From contig JAZDDZ010000053.1 of assembly GCA_043809245.1 (NCBI GenBank), positions 1 through 27,076 on the forward strand: DNA of 27,076 nt, in the 5' to 3' direction. Both the position numbers and the translations under genes were made by a program. Below the pieces are notes generated by a model. It saw only the letters and a program-made list of their open reading frames with translations. It was not told the origin of the DNA and made no database searches. This document shows positions 2,284 to 22,276 of the stretch, one piece after another. The stretch comes from Candidatus Iainarchaeum sp. GTDB lineage: Archaea; Iainarchaeota; Iainarchaeia; Iainarchaeales; JAZDDZ01. Numbering within the stretch: the first letter of the stretch is position 1; each line of letters opens with the position of its first letter.

Positions 2284-2880
2284 ATGATGGTTGAAGACAA
2301 CGCAATAGTCCTTGATTTCATGCCGCGCGGAAAAGGCTCTAGCTTCAAGCCCGAACCGCTTGCACAGGTGCTCGGCACCTCTCACTTCACTTTGTTGGAG
2401 GTTGTTCCAAAAGAGGGAGTTGAATTAAAGGCATTTGACAGTGTTTACATCGGAAAAGAGGAAAGGGACAAAATAGACCACATAAAGCGCAGGATTAACT
2501 TCAAGGACCTTACATCCAATTCTGTTGCCGAAATAGAGAAAGCCATTGAAAAAATAATCCGCGAACAGGAACAGAAATTCGTTGAATTCTTCAACAACGC
2601 GCAGCCGATTTCAATCAAAAGGCACAAGCTCGAGCTTTTGCCTGGCCTGGGAAAAAAACATCTGATGAGCATTCTCTCTGAAAGGGAGAAAGAGCCCTTC
2701 ACTTCCTTCAAGGACATTCAGGCGCGCGTCCACTTAATGCCTGACACAGTCAAAACAATTGCCAAGCGCGTGACGGAAGAGCTTGAGGGAGGCGGAGACA
2801 AGCACTTCATTTTTGCAAGGCCTCCTGCACAGGAACACGATGACTTTAGGCCTAGAAGGGAATTCAGCAGAGGGGAATGA
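2284..2880 (+). CDS. DUF655 putative RNA-binding protein
   Basis: AIVLDFMP.G, FTLLE, FFN.AQPISIKRH.LELLPGLGKK; canonical rpl21e-rpo4-DUF655-rsmA synteny. Confidence 0.92.
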   Translation: MMVEDNAIVLDFMPRGKGSSFKPEPLAQVLGTSHFTLLEVVPKEGVELKAFDSVYIGKEERDKIDHIKRRINFKDLTSNSVAEIEKAIEKIIREQEQKFVEFFNNAQPISIKRHKLELLPGLGKKHLMSILSEREKEPFTSFKDIQARVHLMPDTVKTIAKRVTEELEGGGDKHFIFARPPAQEHDDFRPRREFSRGE

Positions 2881-2961
2881 AATGGTTTCAGTTATTGGTG
2901 GCAAAGGATTTGCTTACCTTTAATAATCTTTTTACAGTAAATTTTGGCAGGAGGTCATGCA

Positions 2962-3510
2962 ATGCTTGAATGGATTGTTTTAATTGTAATCGCAGTAATA
3001 GCCGTGGCATTGATTGCCATTTACAACGGCTTGATTTCTTCAAGGAACCGCGTAAAAAACGCATGGAGCCAGATAGACGTTGAACTCAAGAGAAGGTTTG
3101 ACTTGATTCCAAACCTTGTTGAGACAGTTAAGGGCTACATGAAGCACGAGCGCGGAACATTTGAGGAAGTCACAAAGCTCAGGTCACAGTTGATGAACGC
3201 TTCAGGAAGAAAAGAACAGGGCCAGATAAGCGACATGCTTTCAGGGGCTTTGAAATCACTTTTTGCGGTGGCGGAAAACTACCCTGAACTGAAGGCAAAC
3301 GAGAACTTCAAAATGCTGCAGGAAGAGCTTTCCGGAACCGAAAACAAAATAGCGTATTCAAGGAAATTCTACAACGATTCAGTGTACATGTACAACACAT
3401 CAGTGCAGTCATTCCCAACAAACGTTATTGCGGGAATGTTCGGCTTCAAGGAATCAGAGTTCTTCGGAATAGCCGAATCAGAGAAAGGGCCTGTAAAAGT
3501 GCAGTTTTAA
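2962..3510 (+). CDS. lemA: LemA family protein
   Basis: N-terminal TM helix, [38 protein letters not shown]; GGAGG RBS before ATG 2962. Confidence 0.95.
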
Positions 3511-3549
3511 GCTGCGCTTTTTTTATTCTTTATTTAACGGTAGAGTCAT

Positions 3550-4443
3550 ATGAATGTTTACCAGCAAATATCCTCGAATAAAACAAAGTCAATCCTATTG
3601 TTTTCCTTTTTCTTTCTAGCCATTCTTTTCCTTGGATGGGTTATCGGGGAAATCACGGGCTTTGGCGCAGGGGCGCTTGTAATTGCGTTCATTCTCGCGG
3701 TCCTTCTTTCCTTTTTCTCCTATTATTATTCCGACAGCATTGTCCTCAAGATTTCCCGGGCAAGGGAAGTTAAACGCGAGGAATTCCCTTTCTTGTTTGA
3801 CATTGTTCAGGCAGTTGCAATGGGTGCAGGGGTTCCGAAACCACGCCTTTACGTGATAAATGACACTGCCCCAAACGCTTTTGCAACTGGAAGAAACCCA
3901 CAGCACTCGGTTATCTGCGTTACAACCGGCTTGCTTCAAAAACTTGACCGCAACGAATTGGAGGCAGTCATTGCCCACGAAATGTCGCACATTAAAAACT
4001 ATGACATGCTTGTAATGACAGTCTCCGTGGTGCTTGTCGGCGTAATTGTCTTATTGAGCGACTTTATTTTGAGAAGCTTTCTTTGGGGAAGGCGAGGCGG
4101 CAACAGCAGGGAAAGCGGCAGCCTTGGGCTTGTTTTGATAGCCATAGGCATTCTTTTTGCGGTTCTTTCTCCATTCATTGCAACAATCATTCGCCTGGCG
4201 ATTTCACGCAAAAGGGAGTTTTTGGCTGACGCTGACTCCGCCTTGATGACGCATAACCCTGAAGCGCTTGCCTCGGCTCTTTTAAAAATCTCCAATGACA
4301 AGGAGCCATTGGAGGCAGCAAACAAGGCAACCGCGCACCTTTACATCATCAACCCCCTTAAAGAACACGCCAGCTTTATGAACAATTTGTTCAGCACACA
4401 CCCCCCAATTGAGGCAAGGGTGAAGGCGTTAAGGGGAATGTAA
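3550..4443 (+). CDS. htpX: HtpX (M48) membrane zinc metalloprotease
   Basis: PNAFATG, AHEMSH (HEXXH), SRKREFLAD and FSTHPP motifs. Confidence 0.95.
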   Translation: MNVYQQISSNKTKSILLFSFFFLAILFLGWVIGEITGFGAGALVIAFILAVLLSFFSYYYSDSIVLKISRAREVKREEFPFLFDIVQAVAMGAGVPKPRLYVINDTAPNAFATGRNPQHSVICVTTGLLQKLDRNELEAVIAHEMSHIKNYDMLVMTVSVVLVGVIVLLSDFILRSFLWGRRGGNSRESGSLGLVLIAIGILFAVLSPFIATIIRLAISRKREFLADADSALMTHNPEALASALLKISNDKEPLEAANKATAHLYIINPLKEHASFMNNLFSTHPPIEARVKALRGM

Positions 4444-4471
4444 TTAATTACTTTGCGTTTCTTTTTCTTTA

Positions 4472-5305
4472 ATGCAGGGCGCACTTTTCTCCGAATTGAA
4501 CAATCAGATGGTCAAATACCATTTCAAGCCCTCGCATAAATTCGCGCAGAACTTCATTGTGAATGAAAAGCTGCTGCAGGAAATCGTCAGCGCCGCGCAG
4601 TTAACCAAAAAGGATAGGGTGCTTGAAATCGGCGCTGGAACCGGCTTTCTCACGCGCGAGCTTTTGAAGCACGCGGGAAAAATTATTGCGGTTGAAAAAG
4701 ACGCTTTGCTTTGCGGTTTGCTTGAAGAGGAATTCAAGGGCGAAAAAAAACTTGAAATCATTAAGGGAAATTTTTTGTTTGAAAAGCTGCCGGAATTCAA
4801 CAAAGTTGTCTCCCTCCCGCCTTATTCAATTTCCTCCGGCATCATGCTTCGCTTGTTCGAGCTTGGCTTTGAAAAAGCAGTTCTTGTTTTCCAGCGTGAA
4901 TTCGTTGAAAAATTGGTTGCAGAGCCGGGTTTTGTGGAATACAACGCGTTATCCGTCCTGACAACTTACTTCACTGAACAGAAAATCCTGGAGAAAAGCA
5001 TTTCCCCTAACTCTTTCTATCCAAAGCCGAATTCTTTTTCATCGCTTGTTGTGCTTGACGCAAAAAAAAGGTTCGGCTCAGTTAACGATGAATTGTTTGC
5101 GGATTTTTTGAAGCAATTGTTCCGCCTGAAGAACAAGAACCTTTCAAAGGCCTTGGCGAAATGCTTTCCTTTTTGGAAAAAAAACCTGAAAATCGGAAAA
5201 GAAGAGTTCCTTGAAACAGCCAATTCGCTTGAACTGGCAAAGGAAAAGGTCAACAGGCTTGAATGCAGAGAATTCCTTGAGGTCTTTAAACAAATTCTTC
5301 AATGA
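4472..5305 (+). CDS. rsmA: 16S rRNA adenine dimethyltransferase RsmA/KsgA (atypical motif IV)
   Basis: QNF, VLEIGAGTGFLT, AVEKD, FQREF and FYPKP motifs; synteny with DUF655. Confidence 0.9.
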   Translation: MQGALFSELNNQMVKYHFKPSHKFAQNFIVNEKLLQEIVSAAQLTKKDRVLEIGAGTGFLTRELLKHAGKIIAVEKDALLCGLLEEEFKGEKKLEIIKGNFLFEKLPEFNKVVSLPPYSISSGIMLRLFELGFEKAVLVFQREFVEKLVAEPGFVEYNALSVLTTYFTEQKILEKSISPNSFYPKPNSFSSLVVLDAKKRFGSVNDELFADFLKQLFRLKNKNLSKALAKCFPFWKKNLKIGKEEFLETANSLELAKEKVNRLECREFLEVFKQILQ

Positions 5306-6833
5306 TTACTTCCTCAAAGTCAATTACCCTTGATTTGAGCGCCTGTTTTTCCGCCAAATCAAGCTTTCTGGTGTTCTCAGAGTAAATCTCGTAAAGTATC
5401 TGGCCTTCCCTGATGCTTTCCCCTGCAAGCACCTTTAAGAGAACGCCCGCGCGCTTGTCAGCGGGAGCCCCGGAAAGGCGCGCGATTTCAATTACTTTTT
5501 TGACGTTTATTTTCTTTATTTCGCCCGCGCTTTTTGCCTTTACTTCCTTTTTGAACCTGGCAAGCCTAACGTCCTCGGAGCGCAGAATCTTTCCGTCCTG
5601 TGCCTTGATTATTTCCTTCATTTTTTCAAGAGCCATTCCCGAGGTCAGGATTTCTTTTGCCAGCCTGTGGCCTTCACCTTTCTTTGACCTGCCGACAAGC
5701 TCGAATAATGCGCCCGCAAGCCCGCAGCTTTTTTCCGCAAGCGCGTTCCATTTTTTTCCCTCAAGCGTCTCCATTACCTCTTTTGCCTCAAGCGCTGGCC
5801 CGAAAGCCATTCCAACAGGCTCGTCGCCGTCAGTCAAAACCGCTTCAACCTTTATGCCGACTCTTTTGCCGACTTCAATGAAGTCCCGGGCCATTTCCTC
5901 GGCGGTTTCCCTTGACTTTATTTTTACCTCAGGCCCCACAGGCAAATCAATCACCAAAAACTTTGCGCCAACCGAAGCCTTTTTTGACATCACTGACGCT
6001 ATAACCTGGCCTTTTGGGTCCAGTGAAAGCGGGTGCTCGAGCTTTATCATTTTGTCATCCACTGGCGCTAGGTCAACTGCGCCGCCCCAGCTTATCACTC
6101 CTCCAACCTTGTTTGTTATGTCCCTTATCCTTTCAAGTGAAAGGGAAACGTTTGCAAGCACTTCCATTGAATCAGCGGTTCCAGCAGCGCTTGTAATGCT
6201 CCTGCTTGAAGTTTTGGGTATGAGGTAGCCTGCGGCGGCAATTATCGGCACAACAATCATTGTAGTCCTTCCATTTGTTCCGCCAACAGAATGCTTGTCT
6301 AAAATGAATTCCTTTTCAAACTTCAACTGCCTTCCATCGGCTATAAGCGCGTTTGTCATTGCCACTATTTCCTCCAAGTCAAAGCCATTGATGTAAACGG
6401 ATGACATGAACGCGGAAGCCTCAATGTCGCTTAGCCTGTCGTTTGCAATGTCGTCAACTATTGCCTTTAATTCCCCGGCGGTTAATTTCTGCTTGTCCAT
6501 TTTTTTCTTAATGAATGCAACGCTTTCCGGCCTTTCAACCGCTTTGACCTCAACTTCCTGGCCGTTTTTGACTGCAAGAATTTTTTGCGCTTCCTCAAAC
6601 AAGCCGACCTCGTTTTCCTCAACCATTGAAGTTGTTAGGTCAACTACAACAACCAATGCCTTCCCTGTTTTCTGGTTTCTCACCTGAACCCTTTCAAGCG
6701 CAAAAATCCCAAGCTCTTTTGCGTCAATCTCGTTCATTAAAGCGATTAGCTTGCCTGAATAAATGTTGAAGGTTTTTACCTTCATCTGCTGCGAATAACT
6801 CGAAGTGCTATCCCCATTATCCATAAAAACCAT
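5286..6833 (-). CDS. deoA: AMP phosphorylase (archaeal NMP phosphorylase, thymidine phosphorylase family)
   Basis: DKHSVGG, PKTSSRSITSAAGTADSMEVLA, WGGAVDLAPVDD and ASVMSKK motifs, plus the N-terminal extension typical of AMP phosphorylase. Start uncertain (6833, 6824 or 6785). Confidence 0.92.
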   Translation of the reverse strand: MVFMDNGDSTSSYSQQMKVKTFNIYSGKLIALMNEIDAKELGIFALERVQVRNQKTGKALVVVVDLTTSMVEENEVGLFEEAQKILAVKNGQEVEVKAVERPESVAFIKKKMDKQKLTAGELKAIVDDIANDRLSDIEASAFMSSVYINGFDLEEIVAMTNALIADGRQLKFEKEFILDKHSVGGTNGRTTMIVVPIIAAAGYLIPKTSSRSITSAAGTADSMEVLANVSLSLERIRDITNKVGGVISWGGAVDLAPVDDKMIKLEHPLSLDPKGQVIASVMSKKASVGAKFLVIDLPVGPEVKIKSRETAEEMARDFIEVGKRVGIKVEAVLTDGDEPVGMAFGPALEAKEVMETLEGKKWNALAEKSCGLAGALFELVGRSKKGEGHRLAKEILTSGMALEKMKEIIKAQDGKILRSEDVRLARFKKEVKAKSAGEIKKINVKKVIEIARLSGAPADKRAGVLLKVLAGESIREGQILYEIYSENTRKLDLAEKQALKSRVIDFEEVIIEEFV

Positions 6834-6869
6834 ACAAAATGAAACGGAAAGGGATTAAAAGCTTTTAGC

Positions 6870-7577
6870 TCAAAGCAGCGCTTTCGCGAATTCTTCCGCT
6901 GCTGCCTTCATGTCCTGCGCGCCGTAGATTCCCCTGCCGATTATTGCATGCCAGTGGCTTCCCGCTGCCTTCGCCGAATCAGTTATTTTTCCGCCCTGTG
7001 CAATCAGGCCGGGGGAGTAAAGCACTGGTTTCACGCCTTTTTTTTCAAGCAGTTCCCTGTAATAGGAAATTTTTTCAGGCTTGTTTCCCGGGACAACAAA
7101 ATCTGTTACGCCGTTTTCGGCTGCAAGGGAATAAATTTTTTCAGGTGCGCCCTCAGCAATCGAGCCCCCGTCCTTTTGCAGGAAGCCCTCGTGCGTCATT
7201 TCCCCCCCGACAATCACGCCCAATCCCTTGTTTTTGCATGCCTCAATCCACGCTTTCTCGGTTTTCGGGCCTGTGAATGGAAACAAAATCACTGCGTCAA
7301 CCCCGCTTTCCTTGCAGGAAGCCGCAAACCTTTCCCCCATTTCGGGAATGTCGTTTCCTGCCTTTTGGTGGTCGTAAATGACTGGCAGGTCGCTTAAGCC
7401 CTTAACAGTTGAAACAACTTCCCGCAAACCGAATTTAATCACGAGTTCAAAGCCAACCTTGTATGCCCCGATTCCTTTCACTCCACTGGTTGCTTCAACC
7501 AATTCCGCCAACTTTTCAAGCGAATCAACATCGCAAGCGGGAACAACGCTCCTGTCCAGTGAAATTATTTTGCCCAA
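6870..7577 (-). CDS. pyrF: Orotidine-5'-phosphate decarboxylase (variant motif)
   Basis: ACD, YKVG, DHQKAGNDIP, SPGLIAQGG and IIGRGIY motifs; last gene of the pyr cluster. Confidence 0.88.
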   Translation of the reverse strand: MGKIISLDRSVVPACDVDSLEKLAELVEATSGVKGIGAYKVGFELVIKFGLREVVSTVKGLSDLPVIYDHQKAGNDIPEMGERFAASCKESGVDAVILFPFTGPKTEKAWIEACKNKGLGVIVGGEMTHEGFLQKDGGSIAEGAPEKIYSLAAENGVTDFVVPGNKPEKISYYRELLEKKGVKPVLYSPGLIAQGGKITDSAKAAGSHWHAIIGRGIYGAQDMKAAAEEFAKALL

Positions 7578-7582
7578 TTACA

Positions 7583-7825
7583 TCACCTTCTGCGAATTTT
7601 TTCCAAATCCTCTCTTGTAATTTTTGCTTGTTTCATGATGCTTATAAGGGTCCCTGGTACAAGTGTTTTGTGCATCGGAACAATTACTTTAATCTTGTCT
7701 CCATTTTCTTTTTTTAAAAGTATTACATGGCTTCCCTGCTGGTCCAAAATTGCAAATCCAAATTTTGAAAGAATTTTTATTATTTTTTTACCGGATATCA
7801 CGGGAAGCTTCGCCAAAAAAGTCAC
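7583..7825 (-). CDS. hicA: HicA mRNA interferase toxin
   Basis: LPVISG, GF...Q.GSH.IL, VPMH..L..GTL.SI; start may be TTG 7816. Confidence 0.9.
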   Translation of the reverse strand: MTFLAKLPVISGKKIIKILSKFGFAILDQQGSHVILLKKENGDKIKVIVPMHKTLVPGTLISIMKQAKITREDLEKIRRR

Positions 7826-7826
7826 T

Positions 7827-8048
7827 TCATTTAACTGTAATCGTTGCCAACACCTGTTCCCTGCCCTGCCTTAAATCCAATGCAGCAAGCTCTTTTGGCT
7901 CAGCGTGCTTTAGGTAAAGTTCGCATGCCTCTCTAAGGTTTTCAAGCGCTTCATCAATTGTTTTGCCCTGTGATGCAAGGCCAAGCTCGACGCAATGCGA
8001 TACAAACCATTTTCCTTCCTTTTCTACTACTGCATTCAACTTATACAT
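7827..8048 (-). CDS. hicB: Short HicB antitoxin (no C-terminal DNA-binding domain)
   Basis: FVSHCVELGLASQGKTIDEALENLREACELY; lies directly upstream of hicA. Confidence 0.9.
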   Translation of the reverse strand: MYKLNAVVEKEGKWFVSHCVELGLASQGKTIDEALENLREACELYLKHAEPKELAALDLRQGREQVLATITVK

Positions 8049-8099
8049 TTTTTCACCAATAAATTATTGTGCAAACCGACTTTAATTACTTTCGCCTGT

Positions 8100-8726
8100 T
8101 CACTTTCCTTCCTTTGGCTGGCCCCATTTAACCGGGTCTTTGAGGTATGACATTATTTCCTTGAACTGCTCTTCGTTTATTTTTTCATGCTTTTTCAAAA
8201 AAACAATTATTTCCGTTATTTTGAGCGCGGAATGAAGCGCGTATCCTTTTTCTTCCAGTTCTTTTTTTCCGCCCTGCTCCCTGTCAACCAAAACCACTAT
8301 GTCATTGACTTTCAACCCGGCCTGCTTTAAAGGCTCAATCGCTTCAAGCTTGCTTGCACCGGTTGTGATGAGGTCATCGTACACTAAAACCATGTCGCCT
8401 TCCTTGAAGTTGCCTTCAATCGCCCTCTTTGTCCCGTAATCCTTCTGCTCTTTTCTCGGGTAAATCATTGGCCAGCCGCTTTCAAGCGAAATCGCGGTCG
8501 CAATTGAAATCGCGGCGTAAGGCACGCCGGCAATCCTGTCAAAGTTCAAACCCTTAGTTGTTTCAATCAGCTGGTGCGCGACTTTCTTCAATACCCCGGG
8601 AAATGAAACGAGTATGCGCAAGTCAATGTAAATAGGGCTCTTTAACCCGCTTTTCAAAGTGAATTCGCCGAACTTTATTGCGCCAATCTCAAACAAGTCA
8701 ATTGCAAGCTGCTCTTTCTCGTTCAT
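8100..8726 (-). CDS. pyrE: Orotate phosphoribosyltransferase
   Basis: [31 protein letters not shown] motif [11 protein letters not shown]. Confidence 0.96.
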
Positions 8727-10039: not shown

Positions 10040-10048
10040 TTACTCACC

Positions 10049-11756: not shown

Positions 11757-11788
11757 TTTTATCAGCCTGAAAAAGAATTATGGGGAAA

Positions 11789-12244: not shown

Positions 12245-12246
12245 TC

Positions 12247-13254
<1,008 letters not shown>

Positions 13255-13294
13255 TTAACTATTTTTCTACGCATATTATGCTGAGGTGGCTTTC

Positions 13295-13381: not shown

Positions 13382-13415
13382 GTTCCTGCCAAAAAAAGTT
13401 TTTCTTCACTTATTT

Positions 13416-13438
13416 CGGTTTAGTGTTCCCTGCATTAA
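13416..13438 (-). repeat. Degenerate copy of an internal R15P isomerase segment (15316-15337)
   Basis: cggtttagtgttccctgcattaa vs cggttttatgcccctgcattaa, with an exact 11-nt core ccctgcattaa. Confidence 0.5.
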
Positions 13439-13444
13439 TTGCAT

Positions 13445-13828
13445 TCATTTTTTTTCTAAAGCATTTCTTATCTCTTCTGCATCCCCTAATCTTCCCATTT
13501 CCCTCAGCTTGATGTACAAAGTGCCTGCGTTGCTTACATCACCTGCCCAAGCATATGCGATGCCTGCGGATTTTCTGTCACCCTTTTTTACAAGCCTTTC
13601 CGCATACTCAAGAAGCTTTGCAGTATCGTTTAATTTATCTGCAATTTCCGAAGCAGTTTTAAGGTCGCCATTTTTTTCGGCGGCATTCATTGATTCAATC
13701 AGCTGGTTTTTTTTCCTAGCCATTAAAGCCCGTTTTTCAATCGCAGGCCCAATAGGTTCAATTGTGCCCCAGCGTCTTCTTATCCTTGGCTTACTCTGCC
13801 TGGGCTTGAACTGAATCATGTGCGCCAT
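13445..13828 (-). CDS. Orphan protein with basic N-terminus and TPR-like helical repeats
   Basis: 127-aa ORF with repeated GD..A...(Y) units (KNGDLKTA, KKGDRKSAGIAY, AGDVSNAGTLY). Confidence 0.65.
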   Translation of the reverse strand: MAHMIQFKPRQSKPRIRRRWGTIEPIGPAIEKRALMARKKNQLIESMNAAEKNGDLKTASEIADKLNDTAKLLEYAERLVKKGDRKSAGIAYAWAGDVSNAGTLYIKLREMGRLGDAEEIRNALEKK

Positions 13829-13831
13829 AAA

Positions 13832-13909
13832 TTATCTTTTCCTTTTCCAAATCCCTTTCTCCGTGACAATCACCTTCACGTTTTTCGCTTTGCCGTTGAT
13901 TGTTTTCAT
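13832..13909 (-). pseudogene. Collapsed remnant of the R15P isomerase gene (internal segment fused in frame to the 3' end)
   Basis: MKTINGKAKNVKVIVTEKGIWKRKR*. 13880-13908 matches 15554-15582 at 28/29 nt; 13832-13888 matches 14933-14989 at 48/57 nt; the two are joined at the shared AKN codons. Confidence 0.9.
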
Positions 13910-14868
13910 TTCAGGTACTTCAGGTAAACCGCGAAAAAGTTGCGGTATGTTTTCTTGTATTTTTCAAGGAAAAACCTTTCAAGGTTTTTGGTATAGCCGC
14001 GGTGGAAGTCCTCAAGGCACTTGATGTAGGAATCGCGCTGTGTTTTCCTGATTATCAGCAGGGGATATCCGTTTCGCAGTAAAATCAGGTTGGAAATTAA
14101 CCTGCCTACTCTTCCGTTGCCGTCCTCAAAGGGATGAATCCTTTCAAACTTTCCGTGGAAAAGCGATGCGACCTGCAGCGGGTGCATTTCTTCAATGCTT
14201 TTGTCATGCCATTCAATCAGTTCCTTCATTTCTTTCTGCACTTTTTCGGGTGGCGTGAGCTTTACGCTGCTGCCCGTAATGTAGTTTGGCAGGGCTTTAT
14301 ACCCGGCCCTCACATCAATGTTTTCCATCAAAAGCCTGTGCATTTTAATAATGTCATTTTCTTTTATGCTGAACTTTTTTTTAAGCAATAAATCCATTAC
14401 TTTCCTGCTGTTCCTTGTCTCGTAAATTTCCCTTAAATCTTTTCCCTCAATCGTTCTCTTTTCAAACATCACTATTGCAACGTCTTTCAGTGTCAGGCTG
14501 TTGCCCTCAATTGCGTTGGATTCATAGGTGAAATTTGCAGTAAACCTGTCGAACACATCGCGCCACTGCTCTTTGGAGAATTTCTTAACAGTATGCTGGT
14601 AGTCAACCTTTATTTCCTCAATCTTCCTCATTTCTTCTTCGCTGAAAATTTGGCTCTTTGCAAATTTTTTTAATGCAAAACCCGTGAAAGCCTCCTTTTC
14701 TTTTTGGCTGAAAAAATCCGCGTGCTCCCTTTCAAGCGCCTTCAAGCCTCCGCGCTTGCCTTTAACAAGTTTCTGAAGGGTCTTAACGCTTCCATCAGGT
14801 AGCCTTATGGATTTAGTCAGGTAAAGGTACTTCTTCCCGTGGATTAACTTTTCCTTCAAATAAGCCAT
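13906..14868 (-). CDS. Fic-domain AMPylase (class II, N-terminal inhibitory motif)
   Basis: Complete HPFEDGNGRVGR motif; inhibitory SNAIEGN helix upstream. Confidence 0.93.
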   Translation of the reverse strand: MAYLKEKLIHGKKYLYLTKSIRLPDGSVKTLQKLVKGKRGGLKALEREHADFFSQKEKEAFTGFALKKFAKSQIFSEEEMRKIEEIKVDYQHTVKKFSKEQWRDVFDRFTANFTYESNAIEGNSLTLKDVAIVMFEKRTIEGKDLREIYETRNSRKVMDLLLKKKFSIKENDIIKMHRLLMENIDVRAGYKALPNYITGSSVKLTPPEKVQKEMKELIEWHDKSIEEMHPLQVASLFHGKFERIHPFEDGNGRVGRLISNLILLRNGYPLLIIRKTQRDSYIKCLEDFHRGYTKNLERFFLEKYKKTYRNFFAVYLKYLK

Positions 14869-14881
14869 AAAAAAATTTAGA

Positions 14882-14914
14882 CCTACAAATATTTAAACAT
14901 ATTGTTTTTGTAGG
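14882..14914 (-). promoter_or_regulatory. Fic promoter: TTTAAATA box flanked by inverted repeat CCTACAAA/TTTGTAGG
   Basis: 8-bp arms at 14882-14889 and 14907-14914; TATA at 14890-14897, about 22 nt from the ATG. Confidence 0.6.
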
Positions 14915-14932
14915 GGTAAGAAGTTTTGTGCA

Positions 14933-15820
14933 CTATCTCTTTCCTCTCCAAACGCCCTTCTCCGTGACAATCGCCTTCACGTTTTTCGCGGGAGTTTCGT
15001 CAAACGCGGGATTCCTGATTGAAAGTTTCGGCAGTTTTTTTTCCCACACTTCTTTCACACCGCGTTCCTCAATAGGCTCCTTTCCCTTGGAAGTCAGCGG
15101 GTCGATTTTGTGGGTGGAAGCAAGGACAATGTGCGGCACTCCAAAGTTTTTTGCGGCGAGTGAAATCTGCGCTGTTCCGATTTTATTCAGCACGCCGCCT
15201 TTCACTGTGACTGCATCAGCGCCGGTGATGAACAAATCGCAGCGCGGGAGAAAAGAATATGCCGCGGAGTCAACTACAAGCGTTGCCTTGATTCCCTCTG
15301 CGCTCAAATCCTTCGCGGTTTTATGCCCCTGCATTAAAGGCCTTGTTTCCGTGCAGTAAACCTCTGCTAATTTTCCTTTTTTTTTCGCGAGCTTTAACGC
15401 TTCAATCACTGAATGCGAATGGCAGTGCGTGAAGGCAACCGCTTTTTTCGGGAAAAACCGCAAGGCGTTTTTTGCAATGCGCTCCATTGCCTTTTTTCTT
15501 TCATTTGAGAAATTATTGCATGCTTTTGCGATTTGCCCGCCCAATTCCTTCAAGTTTTTGGCTTTGCCGTTGATTGTTTTCAGCAAAACCTTTGCAGCTG
15601 CCCTTGCCTCTGGTTCTGTGGGGCGCGCGTTCGCCAGGAGAAGAACTGCTTCTCTTAATTCTTTTCTGAACTTTTTCAGGTTTTTTTCCGCGCTGTGCTC
15701 CGCGATTGTTTTTGTGGTTGAAAGCAGTGCCTCTGTTACCTTTGAAGCGCCCTGAATCTTAAGGCTTTTTATGCCTGAAACTGTTTTTCTGAGCAATTTT
15801 TTTGCGGCAATTTGCTTCAT
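14933..15820 (-). CDS. e2b2: Ribose-1,5-bisphosphate isomerase (eIF-2B alpha/beta/delta family)
   Basis: IQGA, RPTEP, THCHS (catalytic Cys), ETRP, GADAV (catalytic Asp), NKIGT and NPAFDETP motifs; same block as AMP phosphorylase. Confidence 0.88.
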   Translation of the reverse strand: MKQIAAKKLLRKTVSGIKSLKIQGASKVTEALLSTTKTIAEHSAEKNLKKFRKELREAVLLLANARPTEPEARAAAKVLLKTINGKAKNLKELGGQIAKACNNFSNERKKAMERIAKNALRFFPKKAVAFTHCHSHSVIEALKLAKKKGKLAEVYCTETRPLMQGHKTAKDLSAEGIKATLVVDSAAYSFLPRCDLFITGADAVTVKGGVLNKIGTAQISLAAKNFGVPHIVLASTHKIDPLTSKGKEPIEERGVKEVWEKKLPKLSIRNPAFDETPAKNVKAIVTEKGVWRGKR

Positions 15821-15961
15821 TTTCCCACTCGTTCAGCGATGCCTTTTTAAAACATTTTAGGGCAAGATTAATTAATACATTAAATAGAGTTAAACTTGTA
15901 TAATAAAGTGCGCTATTGCGTGCCTTTGTTTTGCTTGAACTTTGAGGGGAGATGATTCGGG

Positions 15962-17095: not shown

Positions 17096-17150
17096 ATTCG
17101 CTTCAAGCCAAATGATTTGCTTTAAAAGCTTTAGCCAACGGGTTTTATTT

Positions 17151-17327
17151 ATGTCAATGTTAAGTGATTTCATTGATTCCAGCAGGCGCATTTTCACGGT
17201 TTCAAGAAAGCCTACAATGAATGAATTCAAGGTAATGATGCAGGTGACAGGCCTAGGCATAATCATCATCGGCGTAATCGGCTTCGCGATAACGCTTTTG
17301 TTCAAGTCAACGGGCCTGGGAATGTAG
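17151..17327 (+). CDS. secE: Protein translocase subunit SecE/Sec61-gamma
   Basis: RRIFTVSRKPTMNEF...TGLGIIIIGVIGF; start moved to ATG 17151. Confidence 0.93.
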   Translation: MSMLSDFIDSSRRIFTVSRKPTMNEFKVMMQVTGLGIIIIGVIGFAITLLFKSTGLGM

Positions 17328-17394
17328 TTCTTTGCGCTTTTTCTTTGGTAATTGTTAAATAGTTTTTGCATTACTCCTAATAAAGGGAAAAAGT

Positions 17395-18501
17395 ATGGTG
17401 CCTGCAAAAAAAACAAAGATTTTGCTGCTTTTTTGCGGCGGAACAATTGCAATGGCACCAGACCCGAAGACAGGCTCGTTAAGGCCCGCGCTCAAGCCAG
17501 AAGAGCTTTACTCAATGGCGCCAAAAATCAGGCAATACGCGGACATTGACGTCAAATTCATAACCGACATTGACAGCACAAACATGACTTCCAAGGAATG
17601 GTCTAAAATCATTGAAGCAATCCATGACAACATGGAAAGCTATGACGCATTCCTCCTCACGCACGGCACTGACACAATGGCTGAAACAGCCAACGCAATT
17701 GCCTTTGCATTTGGCTGCGGGCTAAAGAAGCCAGTTGTTATTACGGGTTCGCAGGCCGCCCCTCACTTGCTTGGAACTGATGCGATTGCAAACCTTGAAA
17801 GGGCAGTCAGCGTGGCAATAAACACAACCCGCCCTGAGGTAATGATCAGTTTTCACGACCATGTTTTCAGGGGCACCCGGACACAGAAAACCAGTGAAAG
17901 AAAGCTGAACGCATTCCACTCCCCTGCGGAACACCCTTTGGCAGAGCACATGGGTGACACAATTCATTGGAATGTTGAAAAAAACCCGAAAAAAGAAAAA
18001 CACGAATCGCTTTTTTTGCCTTACTTCAATGAAAGAGTGGTATCAATTTCACTTCACGCTGCATCAGATGCAGGAAATATAACTGAAAGCCTGCTGGTAA
18101 AAAGCGTTGAGCAAAGGCCCAAAGGCTTTGTTTGGACTTCGCTGGGTGCGGGAAACATTCCTGAATCACTTTACCCCGCAATTGAAGCCACGAAAAAAAT
18201 TAATATTCCTATAGTTGTTACCTCACAGTTTCCCGGCGGAAAACTTAACATGAACCAATACGAGTCAGGGAGAAAGGCATTGGAGGCAGGCGTTATTCCT
18301 GCAGGCAATATGACGCCTGAATCCGCAATAGTGAAATTAAAGTGGGCGCTCGGGCTTGCTGAACACGAAATTAGTTCAGGAAAACTTGCGGAAACCCAGC
18401 TAATCCCCTTTGTCAGGCTGGTTTTTGAGCATGAGAGGGCGAATGAAATAACCTTGGATGAAAGCAAACCCCTGCCGGTCAGCTGGAAGTATGCGGTTTA
18501 A
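17395..18501 (+). CDS. ansA: L-asparaginase, type I (cytoplasmic)
   Basis: GGTIAM, DIDSTNM, THGTDTM, VVITGSQ, GAGN and MTPESAIVKL motifs; no signal peptide and no GatD N-terminal domain. Confidence 0.9.
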   Translation: MVPAKKTKILLLFCGGTIAMAPDPKTGSLRPALKPEELYSMAPKIRQYADIDVKFITDIDSTNMTSKEWSKIIEAIHDNMESYDAFLLTHGTDTMAETANAIAFAFGCGLKKPVVITGSQAAPHLLGTDAIANLERAVSVAINTTRPEVMISFHDHVFRGTRTQKTSERKLNAFHSPAEHPLAEHMGDTIHWNVEKNPKKEKHESLFLPYFNERVVSISLHAASDAGNITESLLVKSVEQRPKGFVWTSLGAGNIPESLYPAIEATKKINIPIVVTSQFPGGKLNMNQYESGRKALEAGVIPAGNMTPESAIVKLKWALGLAEHEISSGKLAETQLIPFVRLVFEHERANEITLDESKPLPVSWKYAV

Positions 18502-18502
18502 A

Positions 18503-18539
18503 GCAATGGTTTTTAATTCTTTTTAAGCCAAAGATTGCT
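18503..18539 (+). repeat. Degenerate copy of the ftsZ 3' region and ftsZ-secE spacer
   Basis: GCAATGGTT matches ftsZ 16988-16996; AATTCtttttAAGCCAAAGATTGCT resembles AATTCgcttcAAGCCAAAtGATTtGCT at 17095-17121. Confidence 0.55.
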
Positions 18540-18586
18540 ATCGTTTTTTCGCTTTACGGAGTTTTATTGCGTTTAGGGGTTTTTAT

Positions 18587-19027
18587 ATGATTTTCACGAT
18601 AAGGACAACTGTTGGCCAGGAAAGCCTAGTCGTAGACATACTCGGAAACAAGATTCGAAAAGAGGACTTGAATATTTTCTCCCTCTCAGTTATCCCGGGT
18701 TTGAAGGGATACATTCTCATTGAAGCGGACAATGAAATGACTGTAAGGAGGGGCATTGCAAACACCTCTCACGTGAAAGGAAAAGGAATAGTCGGCGGAG
18801 CCGTGAAAATTGAAGAGCTCTCCAGCCTGCTTGAAGCAAAGCCGTTAATGCAGTCCATTAAAGCAGACATGAAAGTTGAATTAATCGCGGGCCCGTTCAA
18901 AGGCGAAAAAGCAAAAGTCTTAAGGGTCAACGACACAAAAGAAGAAGTTACGGTTGAACTGCTTGAAGCGGCTGTTAAGATTCCGGTTACAATTAAAGCG
19001 GAGCACATAAGGATAATAAAGGAATGA
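18587..19027 (+). CDS. spt5: Transcription elongation factor Spt5 (NusG)
   Basis: RTTVGQE, LKGYILIEA, KOW motif VELIAGPFKGEKAKV, VTVELLEA..IPVT. Confidence 0.96.
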   Translation: MIFTIRTTVGQESLVVDILGNKIRKEDLNIFSLSVIPGLKGYILIEADNEMTVRRGIANTSHVKGKGIVGGAVKIEELSSLLEAKPLMQSIKADMKVELIAGPFKGEKAKVLRVNDTKEEVTVELLEAAVKIPVTIKAEHIRIIKE

Positions 19028-19032
19028 GTTGA

Positions 19033-19410
19033 ATGGCTAAAGGATCACGATTTGGGAAAGGGCCAAGAGGGTTTAGACAAAATCCCGCAACAGTGGCAAA
19101 TAATGCAAATCAAGAAGCTAGACTTGCCGGCCGCCGTCTAGAAATAATTAACTTGGCTTTAAAGCGAGGTATTGTCAAAAAAAATAAGGAGGCCGAAATA
19201 GTTTCCTTGTGCCAAAGAATTATAGCTGACCAAAAAGTTAATGCTTCTGTTGAAAGGCTTCATAAATCTCCCCGTAGTCTTGACCTGAGTAATATTAATG
19301 CGCTTATTGCACTAAATGAAAAAGCAAGGCAATTTCTTGAAAGCAAAGGAATAAATGTTGGCAAAACCGCTGAAACTGGCAACATTACTTTCACGGGGGG
19401 CAGTGCATGA
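19033..19410 (+). CDS. Orphan basic protein inserted between spt5 and rpl11
   Basis: 125-aa ORF, 5 nt after the spt5 stop, with ATGA overlap with rpl11; no recognisable motif. Confidence 0.65.
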   Translation: MAKGSRFGKGPRGFRQNPATVANNANQEARLAGRRLEIINLALKRGIVKKNKEAEIVSLCQRIIADQKVNASVERLHKSPRSLDLSNINALIALNEKARQFLESKGINVGKTAETGNITFTGGSA

Positions 19411-19880
19411 CTGAAATTTCTGTTCTGGTTGAAGGCGGAAAGGCAACAGCTGGCGCTCCATTGGGGCCGGCTTTGGGTCCTTTGGGTGTCAACATTGTTG
19501 AAGTCGTTAACCAGATTAACGCTAAGACAAAGGATTTTTCGGGAATGAAGGTTCCGGTAACTGTTTCCGTTGACTCCAAGTCAAAGTCTTTTGAGGTTAT
19601 TGTGGGCAGCCCCCCGGTTAGTGCGCTCATTAAAAAGGAATTGAATGTGAAGAGCGGCGCAAAAAACCCAAAGTTGGAGGTTGTTGGAGACCTTTCCATG
19701 GAGCAGGTCAAAAAAATCGCTGAAGCAAAAATGGATGGAATGATTTCCTACAAGCTGAAAAGCGCTGCACGCGAAGTCATTGGCGCCTGCAATTCAATGG
19801 GCGTCACAATTGACGGAAAACACGCAAAAGAAGTGCAAAAAGAAATCGCGGAAGGAAAATACGATTCTGTGCTCGGATAA
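19407..19880 (+). CDS. rpl11: 50S ribosomal protein L11
   Basis: VEGGKATAGAPLGPALGPLG, INAKT..F.GMKVPV, G.C.SMGV motifs. Confidence 0.97.
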   Translation: MTEISVLVEGGKATAGAPLGPALGPLGVNIVEVVNQINAKTKDFSGMKVPVTVSVDSKSKSFEVIVGSPPVSALIKKELNVKSGAKNPKLEVVGDLSMEQVKKIAEAKMDGMISYKLKSAAREVIGACNSMGVTIDGKHAKEVQKEIAEGKYDSVLG

Positions 19881-19883
19881 ACG

Positions 19884-20132
19884 CTATTTGTAGATATTTT
19901 TTCTGTGCCCGATTTTAATGATTAATATAATCAATTTTCCCCTATCGATTTCTGCGAGGATTCTGTAATCGCCAACCCGCAACTTGTAGGCGGTTTCCCC
20001 CACAAGCCGTTCAAAATAGTTTTCGGGCCTTATTCTGGCGCGTTCTATCACGGCAATGATTCTCTCTTGCAAAGGTTTCTCAAGCTTTTTTAGCTCCCGC
20101 GAAGCCTTGCCTGAAAAAATTACTTCAAACAT
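19884..20132 (-). CDS. relE: RelE/ParE-family toxin
   Basis: YKLRVGDYRIL...IGHRKNIY motif. Confidence 0.92.
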   Translation of the reverse strand: MFEVIFSGKASRELKKLEKPLQERIIAVIERARIRPENYFERLVGETAYKLRVGDYRILAEIDRGKLIILIIKIGHRKNIYK

Positions 20133-20351
20133 TTACAAACCGAGCTCTTTTTTTACCTGTGCCAAGGTCTTGAAGTTGCCTTCGCGGATTTCCTTTCTTG
20201 CCTCTTCAAGGTCTCTTTTGGTTTCATCGGAAAGCTCTTTTGTGTCTTCCAGCAAATCCCAGATTATGCTTTCATAGCTTTCCTTACTGCTTAATTTCCT
20301 TGCGGAAAGCTCTTTCCTTAATTCATGGCTGACTTGAATTGTTGTTTCCAT
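20133..20351 (-). CDS. Antitoxin partner of RelE (RHH-like N-terminus)
   Basis: METTIQVS...ESYESIIWDLLE...EARKEIREG..KTL.QVKKELGL; abuts relE; start at 20351 fits the TATA spacing. Confidence 0.85.
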   Translation of the reverse strand: METTIQVSHELRKELSARKLSSKESYESIIWDLLEDTKELSDETKRDLEEARKEIREGNFKTLAQVKKELGL

Positions 20352-20359
20352 AGTAATAA

Positions 20360-20388
20360 TATAGCCCGCTATACTATAAAAACCTTGC
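20360..20388 (-). promoter_or_regulatory. relBE promoter (TTTTTATA) with operator-like palindrome TATAGC-CC-GCTATA
   Basis: TATA at 20375-20382; palindrome at 20360-20373 between the TATA box and the ATG. Confidence 0.6.
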
Positions 20389-20401
20389 GTTTGACTAAAA
20401 A

Positions 20402-20446
20402 AAGCTGAAAAGCACTTAAGGGAAATACGATTCGGTTCTGGGCTGA
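20402..20446 (+). pseudogene. Collapsed remnant of rpl11 (internal segment fused in frame to a recoded 3' end)
   Basis: Reads KLKST*GKYDSVLG*. 20402-20416 matches 19752-19766 at 14/15 nt; 20420-20446 matches 19854-19880 at 21/27 nt, and all six differences are silent. Confidence 0.9.
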
Positions 20447-20461
20447 GAACCCCGGTAAACT

Positions 20462-20916
20462 TTATTTTTCTCTTTTTTGTGAAGCAATAATTTTTTTCCA
20501 GTCCTGCCAAATTATTTCAATGTCACGAAAAGCACTTATAATGCGCTGGACAGCTAGTTGATGCGCATCGGGGTTAGTTGAGGCCCTTTCAAAATTGCCT
20601 GCGTATTTTTCTGAGAAAATCTGCCCGGTTTCTTCCATGAAAGACCTGAAAATTTTTTGTGCAGAAGAATGCAACTTGGCAATTTGTTCAGGGCTTTTTT
20701 TTCCTAGCATAATTCGCTCAAAAATCCGCTCAAAGGTATTGACAATTCGCGGGGGCTTTTGTAAATGCTTTTTCAGAACTGCAATTTGCTCGTTTAATGG
20801 TCTTGCAAGAAATGAATCAGCGTAGTTCTCTTTATGCTTTGAAAAATTTGCCTCATACGAATCTAGCCTTGCCTGGGGAATTATCCTTCTCTCTCTCTCT
20901 TTGGGGGTTCAGGCAT
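20462..20916 (-). pseudogene. Orphan gene frameshifted in an (AG)6 tract
   Basis: ATG 20916 gives MPEPPKREREG*. Removing one AG unit (tract 20888-20900) yields a 150-aa ORF MPEPPKRERRIIPQARLDSYE... continuous with the 20462-20710 ORF. Confidence 0.65.
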
Positions 20917-20998
20917 ACAATCGGATAGAGAATGGCATAAAACAGTATTTATTGATTTTGGCTGATTCATTGGTTAAGATTCTGTTTTTTTGCCCGCA

Positions 20999-21011
20999 GA
21001 AACTTTAAATA
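20999..21011 (+). promoter_or_regulatory. BRE-TATA promoter GAAAC-TTTAAATA of the MNT gene
   Basis: Near-consensus archaeal TATA box about 35 nt before ATG 21046, with an AGGTGG RBS in between. Confidence 0.55.
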
Positions 21012-21045
21012 ACGCTACAGCCATACAATTTATAGGTGGAATTAA

Positions 21046-21360
21046 ATGAAGCACGGCTTAACGCCTAACACAATTATCGGGGAACTTGAAAGCCGAAAAG
21101 AAGAGTTAGCAGTATATGGAGTCAAGCGCATTGGCTTGTTCGGATCTTTTTTGAAGGGCAGCGGCAGGAAGGAAAGTGACTTGGACTTTCTTGTTTTATT
21201 TGATGCTTCTACTTTCGATAAGTACTTTGAACTTAAATTCTTGCTTGAAAAATTGTTTCACAGGAAAGTCGATTTGGTTCTTGAAGACAGCCTTAAGCCG
21301 GCTGTTGAATACGTGAAAAAAGAGGCTCTTTATGCCAAGGCAAATTTTATATCAGCTTAA
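21046..21360 (+). CDS. Minimal nucleotidyltransferase (MNT, MntA-type antitoxin)
   Basis: IGLFGSF...ESDLDFLV...RKVDLV motifs (GS-x10-DxD, third D). Confidence 0.92.
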   Translation: MKHGLTPNTIIGELESRKEELAVYGVKRIGLFGSFLKGSGRKESDLDFLVLFDASTFDKYFELKFLLEKLFHRKVDLVLEDSLKPAVEYVKKEALYAKANFISA

Positions 21361-21398
21361 CTGATCTGTGGCTTTGAGGAAATAGGGGTGTGTTTTCA

Positions 21399-22001
21399 AT
21401 GGCTGATGCTAATTTTCCGGTTGTTGATATTTCGGTATTGAAATTATCTGATGTAACTATTTGTTTTTCACTTAATTTTGATTGTGGCTTGAAGGACTTG
21501 AATGATTTTCTTGCTGAAGACGCGTTAAGGCAACAAAAGGAATCTGTGAACGTTACATTTCTATGGGTTTCAAGGAAAACCCGAGAATTGCTCGGCTACA
21601 TCACGTTATGCAATGATTCAATTCATTTATTTGGAGAGAAAAAAGAGGAAATGAAAACAATCGGCATTTCTTACAAGGCACTCCCCGCATTGAAGGTTTG
21701 CAGGATGGCAGTCAGCAACAAGTTTGCGGGCAGGGGGCTTGGGACTAAAATGATTGCTTTTGCTGTAAAAGTTGTTTTGGAAATCAATGAAATGTCGGGC
21801 TGTAGGTTTTTGACTTTGGAGGCTAAAAACGATGAAACGCTGCCTGAAAAAAAGAAGCCGGTGCATTTTTACAAAAAACTCGGTTTTTCTTTGCTAAAAG
21901 AAAGAAAGCAGAACGCATCTTATTTTCCAATGTACAAAGACCTTAAACCATTGATTAATGAATTCATTGGGCTTGAAGCGAAAAAAGCCTTTGGTTCTTA
22001 G
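21399..22001 (+). CDS. GNAT acetyltransferase (TacT/AtaT toxin-like)
   Basis: FDCG..DLNDFL, GYITL, PALKVCRMAV, acetyl-CoA loop GRGLG, FYKKLGF. Confidence 0.88.
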   Translation: MADANFPVVDISVLKLSDVTICFSLNFDCGLKDLNDFLAEDALRQQKESVNVTFLWVSRKTRELLGYITLCNDSIHLFGEKKEEMKTIGISYKALPALKVCRMAVSNKFAGRGLGTKMIAFAVKVVLEINEMSGCRFLTLEAKNDETLPEKKKPVHFYKKLGFSLLKERKQNASYFPMYKDLKPLINEFIGLEAKKAFGS

Positions 22002-22128
22002 CAATAACCCCTAAAATGAGGCGGTCTGTTTTGCCTGGCTTCGCTGAATCGTTTTTTTTCATTTTCTCCAAAAAAGCCATGGCTTCTTTGCCGACAAGCG
22101 TTGGGGTTGCCCTGATTGGTTTCGCCAT
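21964..22128 (-). CDS. 54-aa protein convergent with the GNAT gene, putative antitoxin (absent from the ORF track)
   Basis: MAKPIRATPTLVGKEAMAFLEKMKKNDSAKPGKTDRLILGVIAKNQRLFSLQAQ*; TTTTTAAA box upstream; overlaps the GNAT 3' end by 38 nt. Confidence 0.7.
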   Translation of the reverse strand: MAKPIRATPTLVGKEAMAFLEKMKKNDSAKPGKTDRLILGVIAKNQRLFSLQAQ

Positions 22129-22276
22129 AAAAACACTTTCCTAAACAATATTTTTCTTCTAACTCTTTAAAAAGGGCATCCCTTTTAAAACCTTTAGTGA
22201 AAGGAGAATTATATAGGATTTAACCGGTTTTTAACCGTGTGTACTAACCCCTTTGGGTGTTAGGAGGTCTTTGAAA

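Follow-up and report, generated by a model that had tools for sequence, protein, structure and literature searches.

Accessory genes are known to gather behind the 3′ ends of conserved genes by several routes. Parts of PMC5361080 describe C-terminal displacement and orphan arrays at Rhs, contact-dependent inhibition (CDI) and type VI secretion system (T6SS) effector loci, and ascribe them to homology-facilitated illegitimate recombination. The island SGI1 integrates at the 3′ end of trmE, as stated in one section of PMC8409611. Insertion downstream of conserved genes is reported for the Tn7 family in a portion of 10.1101/2025.07.27.667033. [quoted passage not shown] The attC sites of integrons are imperfect palindromes of 57–141 nt with conserved core sites. 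Here, the 27,076-nt contig JAZDDZ010000053.1 of Candidatus Iainarchaeum sp. (assembly GCA_043809245.1) is analyzed at its full length, which is called the window. Two housekeeping genes of the window, one for a ribose-1,5-bisphosphate isomerase-like protein (R15Pi) and rpl11, are each followed by an accessory cassette and then by a truncated copy of their own 3′ end. Below, such a gene, cassette and copy are called anchor, cargo and remnant. The full-text literature search found no account of housekeeping-gene 3′-end remnants behind cargo in archaea, the data tables of PMC9668308 being outside its scope.

The window is the entire contig C53 of a 55-contig assembly of 1.48 Mb, 91.8% complete. 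G000 denotes this source genome, G016 a relative with a closed, single-contig genome, C a contig, and L a fetched locus. The relatives compared belong to the same order and to other families, and the statistics treat relatives that are not independent of one another. The nearest genomes share at most 72% protein identity for rpl11 and at most 54% for the isomerase. A metagenome scan for a closer sequence gave a single match, at 37%.

The remnant of the isomerase gene consists of two matches. Positions 13833–13888 are 86% identical to the 3′ end of the gene at 14934–14989 (48/56 nt; blastn E 2.6e-11), and positions 13873–13908 are 94% identical to an internal segment at 15547–15582 (34/36 nt; E 1.6e-7). 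Both are the top non-low-complexity blastn self-matches within the whole window, and the longest identical runs between remnant and anchor are 20 and 16 nt. In the remnant, codons ~80–88 are fused in frame to the last 18 codons and the stop of the isomerase gene. The fusion point is a 16-nt imperfect repeat (14/16) which is found at both places of the gene. Because these two parts are joined, the duplicate must once have been at least 650 nt long and have collapsed by deletion. The 18 codons differ by 3 synonymous and 4 conservative non-synonymous changes, with TAA versus TAG as stop codons. The Fic cassette exactly fills the gap between the anchor and the remnant; 64 nt separate the Fic start from the isomerase stop, and the Fic stop lies inside the first bases of the remnant. 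The end of Fic and the remnant have a common 5–6 nt string at their junction, as read from the sequence, and the other junctions are blurred by divergence.

The surroundings of this gene are conserved in part. FtsZ is encoded divergently upstream of the isomerase gene in 24 of the 29 relatives' loci. In two of the 29, tblastn places pyrB on the strand of the isomerase gene, 150 and 178 nt past its end, which is the arrangement expected of an empty site. In the window, a 127-aa open reading frame (ORF) stands between the remnant and pyrB. It is the native downstream neighbor or else an older cargo. C43 holds another match to the 3′ end of the isomerase gene. It is not a remnant, as it represents the conserved C-terminal motif of an IF-2B-family paralogue (353 aa).

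At rpl11, positions 20418–20442 match the final codons of the gene, and 0 of 100 shuffles reach the score. The score of the adjoining internal piece (20402–20416, 15 nt) is reached by 4 of 100 shuffles. At the nucleotide level alone this remnant is unremarkable, with a window-wide blastn E of 0.68 and a longest identical run of 11 nt. In frame, its last 8 residues are identical to those of rpl11; 5 of the codons differ synonymously, and the stop reads TGA versus TAA. Its stop-anchored score of 13.5 (the statistic is defined below) is higher than all 2558 reverse-complement control values genome-wide. This case is weaker than the isomerase case at the DNA level and convincing in frame. The toxin of the cassette matches Pfam ParE_toxin (E 2.5e-11), and the putative antitoxin has no Pfam family. 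In 29 relatives' loci the gap between rpl11 and rpl1 is 88–157 nt in 10, 214–489 nt in 4 and 869–1216 nt in 6, and rpl1 was not reached in 9. The longer stretches of 11 relatives hold unrelated small genes. Because the gaps vary and the inserts are unrelated, the junction between rpl11 and rpl1 can be considered a recurrent insertion point. These inserts include a HicAB-like pair, so named by the look of its sequence. The coordinates of both cases are listed in Table 1.

Table 1. Anchors, cargo, remnants and adjoining features of the two cases in the window.
Feature	Positions	Strand	Description	Basis or remark
Anchor 1	14933–15820	−	Intact IF-2B-family gene, ribose-1,5-bisphosphate isomerase-like, 295 aa	Pfam PF01008, E 2e-62
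Cargo 1	13906–14927	−	Fic cassette, coding sequence (CDS) 13906–14868 plus ~60 nt promoter region	Pfam PF02661 (Fic), E 3e-20
Remnant 1	13832–13908	−	Collapsed copy of anchor 1, 77 nt, own stop	Self-alignment
127-aa ORF	13445–13828	−	No Pfam family	Starts 3 nt past the stop of remnant 1
pyrB	12247–13233	−		Directly behind the isomerase gene in two relatives
Anchor 2	19407–19880	+	rpl11, 157 aa	Orthologues in 37/40 relatives, ≤72% aa identity
Cargo 2	19884–20388	−	ParE/RelE-family toxin 19884–20132, 72-aa putative antitoxin 20133–20351, promoter region	
Remnant 2	20402–20447	+	15-nt internal rpl11 piece plus last 8 codons and stop, 46 nt	
Non-ribosomal DNA, remnant 2 to rpl1	20448–22252		82-aa ORF (−), nucleotidyltransferase 21046–21360, GNAT-like 21390–22001	Pfam

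The same arrangement is found elsewhere in G000. In a self-comparison of the genome, counted at a spacing of 100–6000 nt, 27 high-scoring segment pairs with at least one copy outside a called gene are direct repeats, and none is inverted. The last 60 nt of each of the 1279 genes of at least 80 aa were compared with 4 kb downstream. At a score of at least 15, 26 genes have a match downstream; the controls give 16 upstream, 7 and 5 in reverse complement, and 8 for 5′ ends against upstream DNA. In the stop-anchored statistic, the match must extend to a stop codon at the same place. With a score of at least 12, it gives 11 genes downstream, 6 upstream, and 0 and 0 in reverse complement, and the upstream matches are tandem paralogues as far as checked. 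The genes were called with a crude codon-bias ORF picker of our own making, which is not a validated annotation, and the same controls serve several of the scans.

After the removal of paralogues, about 12 anchors are left in G000. They include R15Pi, rpl11, the primase large subunit PriL, the acetolactate synthase small subunit IlvN, a SIMPL protein, the GMP synthase GuaA, a GltX-type synthetase, a Big_7 surface protein, a pyridine-nucleotide disulphide oxidoreductase and CoaBC. The repeats of the 12 anchors have no common sequence, and each remnant matches its own anchor only, except in case 8 (the Big_7 protein), which may be the shared C-terminal tail of a paralogue family. Since the anchors are unrelated and the remnants match only their own anchors, homology fits better than site-specific recognition. 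No common motif was seen by eye at the cassette junctions in the 12 cases. The repeats are 12–578 nt long, and the remnants 12–110 nt. The cargo is always accessory: Fic, ParE, MazF/PemK, PIN, nucleotidyltransferases, AAA_14/DUF4143 ATPases and an IS200-type gene; one cargo is a 229-aa ORF outside the Pfam scan. Remnants with almost no cargo also occur (43 nt on C18; 35 and 55 nt in G016). Further Fic genes of G000 (C22, C18, C10) and several DUF4143 ATPases are flanked by repeats.

The signature is not restricted to the source genome. In G016 (1.2 Mb of a single contig), the stop-anchored statistic gives 6 genes downstream, 0 upstream, and 0 and 2 in reverse complement. The Fic cargo was followed across DPANN phyla in 80 homologous loci, of which 76 were usable. 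Flanking direct repeats with a score of at least 15 are seen in 23 of the 76, compared with 3 in the reverse-complement control and 0 for permuted locus pairs. This count includes L054, L066 and L022, whose repeats hold Fic's own promoter palindrome and may be derived from the cassette rather than from the target. All the Fic-flanking repeats differ in sequence between loci. In several loci their left copy takes in the end of the ORF before it (L024, L066, L018, L030) or directly follows that ORF (L050, L080), and three copies are present at L025, L079 and L015.

Fic with ~60 nt of upstream sequence (13908/13916–14920/14927) shows 64–74% nucleotide identity to the Fic loci of relatives. It is the best-conserved DNA of the window across families, above any housekeeping DNA, and elsewhere its neighbors are unrelated genes. 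The best matches of the Fic gene are labelled Candidatus Iainarchaeum. Among 195 other genomes of the order, 12 have the ParE cassette (19884–20388), at other sites and with 64–70% nucleotide identity, and 1 of 7 examined copies is flanked by an 89-nt repeat. Based on these distributions, the Fic and ParE cargo is evidently mobile. The 89-nt repeat belongs to L239 (G086:C51, 1404–2122), a ParE/antitoxin cassette. The repeat is the 5′ end of the neighboring minus-strand ORF, and this is the single duplication of the 5′-end type seen, in a relative.

Two side observations concern the Fic family. The palindrome in the Fic promoter region lies around a TATA-like box at 14880–14915 (minus strand) and may be an operator; a similar string stands upstream of Fic homologues and inside some flanking repeats, those of L054, L066 and L022. 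The family (L011–L090) is found at 50–74% amino acid identity in records of Iainarchaeum, Altiarchaeota, Micrarchaeota, Woesearchaeota, Pacearchaeota, Aenigmatarchaeota and Nanohalarchaeota. It also appears in records labelled Bathyarchaeia, Thaumarchaeota, Hadarchaeota and Methanosarcinales and in one Chloroflexota bin.

Sequence comparison of the remnants with the intact ends might shed light on the origin of the two copies. For 14 stop-anchored remnants, 8 in G000 and 6 in G016, the changed codons comprise 23 synonymous and 12 non-synonymous ones, and 26 of 37 base differences are at third codon positions. Excluded from this count were C9:25902 and C23:41761, which are tandem full-length paralogues, and C8:9460, which is A-rich and resembles a ribosome-binding site. 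Neutral decay in place is expected to give ~45% third-position differences and ~40% synonymous changes, and both values are exceeded (P 0.0017 and P 0.0019, respectively). This excess indicates that both ends stood in working genes for most of their divergence. One of the two ends was imported from another lineage.

The position of the remnants suggests which end this was. Remnants are followed by the next gene after 3 nt (isomerase), 15 nt (GltX), 27 nt (oxidoreductase) or, for convergent neighbors, 10–93 nt. Because they abut the native next gene, the remnants are the displaced native ends. The similarity extends no farther than the stop codon in 7 of 12 cases, and the two copies differ as far as the last codon. 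Similarity that ends at the stop places the crossover farther upstream in the gene, so that the intact end would be the imported one. In two cases, 5 and 11, the repeat extends beyond the stop, where its copies are identical in case 5; the crossover was probably behind the gene in these two. The original prediction had proposed that incoming DNA carried the 3′ part of a relative's anchor, that the remnant is the displaced native end and that the displaced duplicate collapsed. The mostly synonymous differences, the tight native junction of, e.g., 3 nt and the in-frame fusion at R15Pi agree with these three proposals, and the enrichment over controls that it expected is seen downstream of the anchors.

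Based on these features, insertion by a single, homology-anchored crossover through host recombination, followed by deletional erosion, is the reading that we prefer, at a probability of roughly 0.45. Incoming DNA from a moderately diverged relative would carry the 3′ part of a conserved gene and the adjacent accessory gene. A single crossover inside the gene, either of the Campbell type or with homology at one end and an illegitimate join at the other, would be made by host general recombination (RadA). It would produce an intact hybrid gene with the incoming 3′ end, then the cargo, and then a truncated duplicate with the native 3′ end in place. Deletions in a streamlined genome would remove all unselected DNA, so that the duplicate shrinks from its cargo-facing end and loses internal stretches between microhomologies. 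Cargo with an addictive or defensive role such as toxin-antitoxin pairs, Fic, nucleotidyltransferases and AAA/DUF4143 ATPases would be kept. The last 12–110 nt of the native end would survive because the start or terminator signals of the next gene adjoin them. Host recombination is favored because the anchors are many and unrelated, one duplicate was long, near-cargo-less remnants occur and integrases are few. RadA is encoded in G000, and MutS was not found by profile search in this 91.8% complete genome. Without MutS, diverged sequences would be expected to recombine more readily. In G000, the match to RadA (Rad51 family) at C23:25236–27449 is split into profile positions 1–203 and 194–244, ~1.46 kb apart. 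Both parts lie inside one 861-aa open frame, which suggests an insertion of intein size in this recombinase.

Several observations weigh against this model. Relatives that have inserts behind rpl11 have no remnant there: in 29 relatives' loci no rpl11 remnant was found above controls, with Spt5 or another ORF mistaken for the gene by the ORF picker in 9 and 1 locus too short. A symmetric homology model should also leave remnants of 5′ ends, and G000 shows no enrichment of these. In G016, the unanchored scan at a score of at least 17 does not set 3′ ends above 5′-end queries (10 versus 6 and 8), which may be due to paralogue families; the two are told apart by the stop-anchored statistic only. 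The repeats that remain are short and 78–96% identical; homologous recombination would use them poorly, unless they had once been far longer. How the cargo came to lie beside each anchor in the donor is left unexplained by the model. The evidence for a crossover comes from assembled sequence. Finally, G000 encodes five tyrosine recombinase genes besides the best-scoring one, and on C27 an integrase is linked to integrase-less cargo.

This last point leads to the explanation which is only a little less probable than the preferred one: the cassettes may be tyrosine-integrase islands that were eroded or mobilized in trans. The attP of such an island would contain the 3′ end of its target, the repeats would be attL and attR, and the integrase would have been deleted or never present. 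Enzymes of the tyrosine (PF00589), serine (PF00239) and IS200 (PF01797) types were not found in the window by profile search, as the original prediction had stated of integrases; its "integrase-free" is not shown by this, as the genome has six PF00589 genes. The best-scoring one may, by our guess, be a chromosome-resolving enzyme, and two of the six are directly beside tRNA-Cys and tRNA-Ala. On C27 (L102, 2547–13267), three copies of a ~55-nt att-like core lie just past the stops of thioredoxin-like genes, with a tyrosine integrase (7223–8515) 68 nt behind the second copy. The integrase element stands between two full-length DUF2703/thioredoxin-like genes of 82% identity, and the segment between the first two core copies holds cargo including an AAA_14/DUF4143 ATPase and no integrase. 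By its layout, this is classical accretion at an att site, and an integrase-linked process can therefore yield integrase-less, repeat-flanked cargo in G000. Fic genes on C22 and C10 are flanked by tRNA-linked repeats, and an integrase or a fragment of one is beside Fic in L064 and L026. The repeats pass the stop in cases 5 and 11, with an identical core of ~40 nt or more in case 5, and a 3′ end borne by the element would explain the synonymous differences too. The published model of TA-islet erosion, in the part of PMC13617665 that sets it out, also fits.

The distribution of integrases and the form of the repeats agree less with islands. In G000 an integrase is in or adjoins just one of ~22 repeat-bounded segments, that on C27. 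Of the 80 Fic loci, 3 have an integrase homologue within 5 kb, and none was found in 11 rpl11–rpl1 inserts or downstream of the isomerase gene in 29 relatives' loci, by searches of limited sensitivity whose queries were the six integrases of G000 only. Twelve protein-gene anchors and 23 repeats around one cargo family would need many specificities. In the 7 cases in which similarity ends at the stop there is no core beyond the gene, a duplicate of 650 nt or more would make a long att site, and remnants with almost no cargo occur. Duplication in situ at the insertion, by a staggered break or microhomology-mediated template switching with the copies diverging in place, would account for repeats that are derived from the target, range from 12 to 578 nt and are independent of sequence. 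Some repeats are 100% identical (288 nt in L087, 24 nt in L050, 19 nt in L044), and junctions fall at short shared strings such as the imperfect repeat of the isomerase remnant. It is improbable given the codon counts, in which third-position differences and synonymous changes (23/35) exceed the neutral values and all five changed codons of the rpl11 remnant are synonymous, and it is already disfavored by sequence for repeats overlapping coding sequence. A chimera of two strains in the metagenome-assembled genome could be imagined from the 55 contigs and from remnants that resemble a second allele. The ordered structure of gene, cargo, truncated in-frame remnant and native neighbor, the lack of a long exact shared word, and the same pattern in the single-contig relative and in independently assembled genomes of other studies make this very improbable. 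Least probable of all is an integron or a cluster of attC sites lacking an integron integrase (CALIN). Its cargo types in Archaea (toxin-antitoxin, acetyltransferase-like) match, and most archaeal integrons have no IntI according to a section of PMC9668308; here the repeats are the coding 3′ ends of the neighboring gene, the remnants form weak structures (−6.0 and −5.2 kcal/mol) and no imperfect palindrome from end to end, and the window has no recombinase gene.

Other repeat-flanked loci of G000 are less clear. In L104 (C10, 2133–8156), an intact tRNA-Gly (4634–4706) has tRNA-like fragments 2.5 kb upstream and 3.4 kb downstream, and a second Fic gene directly follows the tRNA. The three tRNA-Gly-like copies are not isoacceptor genes, as only the middle one is called a tRNA by ARAGORN and Rfam. 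The segments also hold thymidylate kinase and DJ-1/PfpI genes, and this locus was set aside as evidence of stacking, as its cargo includes housekeeping-like genes. In total, G000 has nine matches to DUF4143 (AAA_14-linked) ATPases and six to Fic in 1.48 Mb. Several of them are single genes within direct repeats, e.g., C10:52073–54220 with 140-nt repeats. At C20:4204–11491, a DUF4143 ATPase gene is enclosed by two tandem large paralogues which are mostly ~60–63% identical and 92% identical over their last 312 nt. The shared ends may be the result of 3′-end conversion or exchange.

The original prediction had listed six anchor-cargo-remnant cases in the window. R15Pi/Fic and rpl11/ParE stand, and the other four are at chance level when the anchor is locally aligned to its downstream region with 100 shuffles. 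The proposed R15Pi/orphan remnant at 13416–13438 is only a 64% match and is not in the top six local alignments. For ftsZ-secE/ansA (18503–18539), the best matches fall in the asparaginase CDS and none lies at these coordinates. The rpl11/orphan match at 20961–20985 and the 9-bp repeat of DUF655 are likewise not among the top six, and what does align in the four regions scores no better than shuffles. The original prediction also contrasted a nearly identical internal piece with a diverged 3′ end; the bases are too few for significance. Integron-like stacking, with the newest cargo nearest the anchor, had been expected too, and there is no second remnant behind either anchor of the window. By local alignment against shuffles, no anchor remnant lies behind the 127-aa ORF or behind the DNA at 20448–22252. 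Three-copy repeat arrays are seen only outside the window (C27, L025, L079, L015). The arrangement is not a dedicated integron-like machine.

The gene content of the window is typical of DPANN, based on the ORFs and Pfam. It includes a pyrimidine operon and genes for an AMP phosphorylase-like protein, the IF-2B-family isomerase-like protein, FtsZ, Spt5, rpl11, rpl1, P0 and P1. By synteny, the asparaginase gene (17395–18501) and a 125-aa ORF with no known family (19033–19410) look like extra DNA. By coordinate subtraction, the distance from the isomerase start to the rpl11 start is 3587 nt here versus 1995–2736 nt in 14 relatives, and Spt5 and rpl11 are ~380 nt apart versus ~10–70 nt in most relatives. 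Local alignment against shuffles found no anchor remnant behind the asparaginase gene or the 125-aa ORF. Positions 1–1500 of the window have a G+C content of 33% versus ~44–49% in the remainder, and contain small ORFs without known family.

Gene gain in DPANN archaea is poorly understood; their genomes are tiny, and many of them depend on other cells. A fragment that aligns to the stop and differs mainly synonymously dates and orients a single acquisition event, and it shows that the incoming DNA came from relatives with the same housekeeping gene. The signature is frequent, with about a dozen events per 1.5 Mb, and is also found in a second genome of the order and around one Fic family in about a third of the examined loci across DPANN phyla. 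If host recombination alone is responsible, conserved genes are landing pads for defense and toxin-antitoxin genes with no mobile-element enzyme involved. If integrases are responsible, these genomes hold many more eroded islands with protein-coding targets than their annotation would lead one to expect. Under either explanation, any genome can be searched for the signature. It can further be speculated, as a rather unlikely extension, that DPANN archaea have a general cassette mobility which works through RadA single crossovers and no element-encoded enzyme. Small defense or addiction genes may then travel with a 3′ fragment of a housekeeping gene as a homing arm and rewrite the end of that gene. 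The cassettes may loop out between the copies and spread among lineages, leaving the remnants as a fossil record. This may be a main route of accessory genes in these streamlined genomes poor in mismatch repair.

Compared with the known systems, the signature is not clearly a new one and resembles known kinds of island insertion. As in the part of 10.1101/2025.07.27.667033 on Tn7-family insertion, cargo gathers just behind the 3′ ends of conserved genes. Unlike here, Tn7 elements have transposase genes and short fixed duplications, and the gene end is neither duplicated nor replaced. The Tn7 target duplication is 5 bp. No transposase was found in the window with Pfam, and the repeats, 12–578 nt long and with third-position-biased differences, do not look like target-site duplications of a transposon. 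With archaeal integrons and CALINs, as characterized in a section of PMC9668308, the cassettes have in common that they are small, consist of single genes, are often toxin-antitoxin genes and mostly have no visible integrase; arrays behind a fixed point are described there. Unlike in integrons, the repeats here are copies of the end of the neighboring gene. No intI with adjacent attI is present in the window, which has no PF00589 match, and no attC was recognized, as the repeats are in-frame coding copies with no end-to-end stem, judged by features and not by a covariance model. The TA-islet account, in the part of PMC13617665 concerned, explains why addictive genes remain, why there is no mobility gene and why conserved neighbors matter. 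Unlike here, TA islets as presented in that part use double crossovers in both flanks, with no duplicated gene end.

Islands with attL and attR share more with these loci: the direct repeats are made of the 3′ end of the target gene, which is duplicated at both ends of the insert and restored by the sequence of the element. Tandem accretion is known for such islands, and the C27 locus fits it. At fda, integrase-less cis-mobilizable elements (CIME) have reportedly accreted beside the integrative element ICESt1. Unlike typical islands, the cassettes of the window are 0.5–1.0 kb with neither an integrase nor room for one, the anchors are many, the repeats differ along their whole length and in most cases reach only to the stop, and one duplicate was at least 650 nt long. 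In the Rhs, CDI and T6SS effector loci, as far as the parts of PMC5361080 describe them, a conserved upstream anchor likewise receives a new 3′ part with a linked gene, the old 3′ part is left downstream, no integrase is involved and repeated events would leave the latest module adjoining the anchor. There, the anchor is a polymorphic toxin gene whose function is altered by the new 3′ end. Here, the anchors are housekeeping genes, the protein is restored unchanged, the cargo is unrelated to the anchor, the remnants are 12–110 nt and the window has no arrays. The central feature of C-terminal displacement is seen here, an intact gene followed by a displaced 3′ fragment of its own from a different allele. 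By this comparison, the signature appears closest to the C-terminal displacement of Rhs, CDI and T6SS loci or to the accretion of integrase-less elements at att sites.

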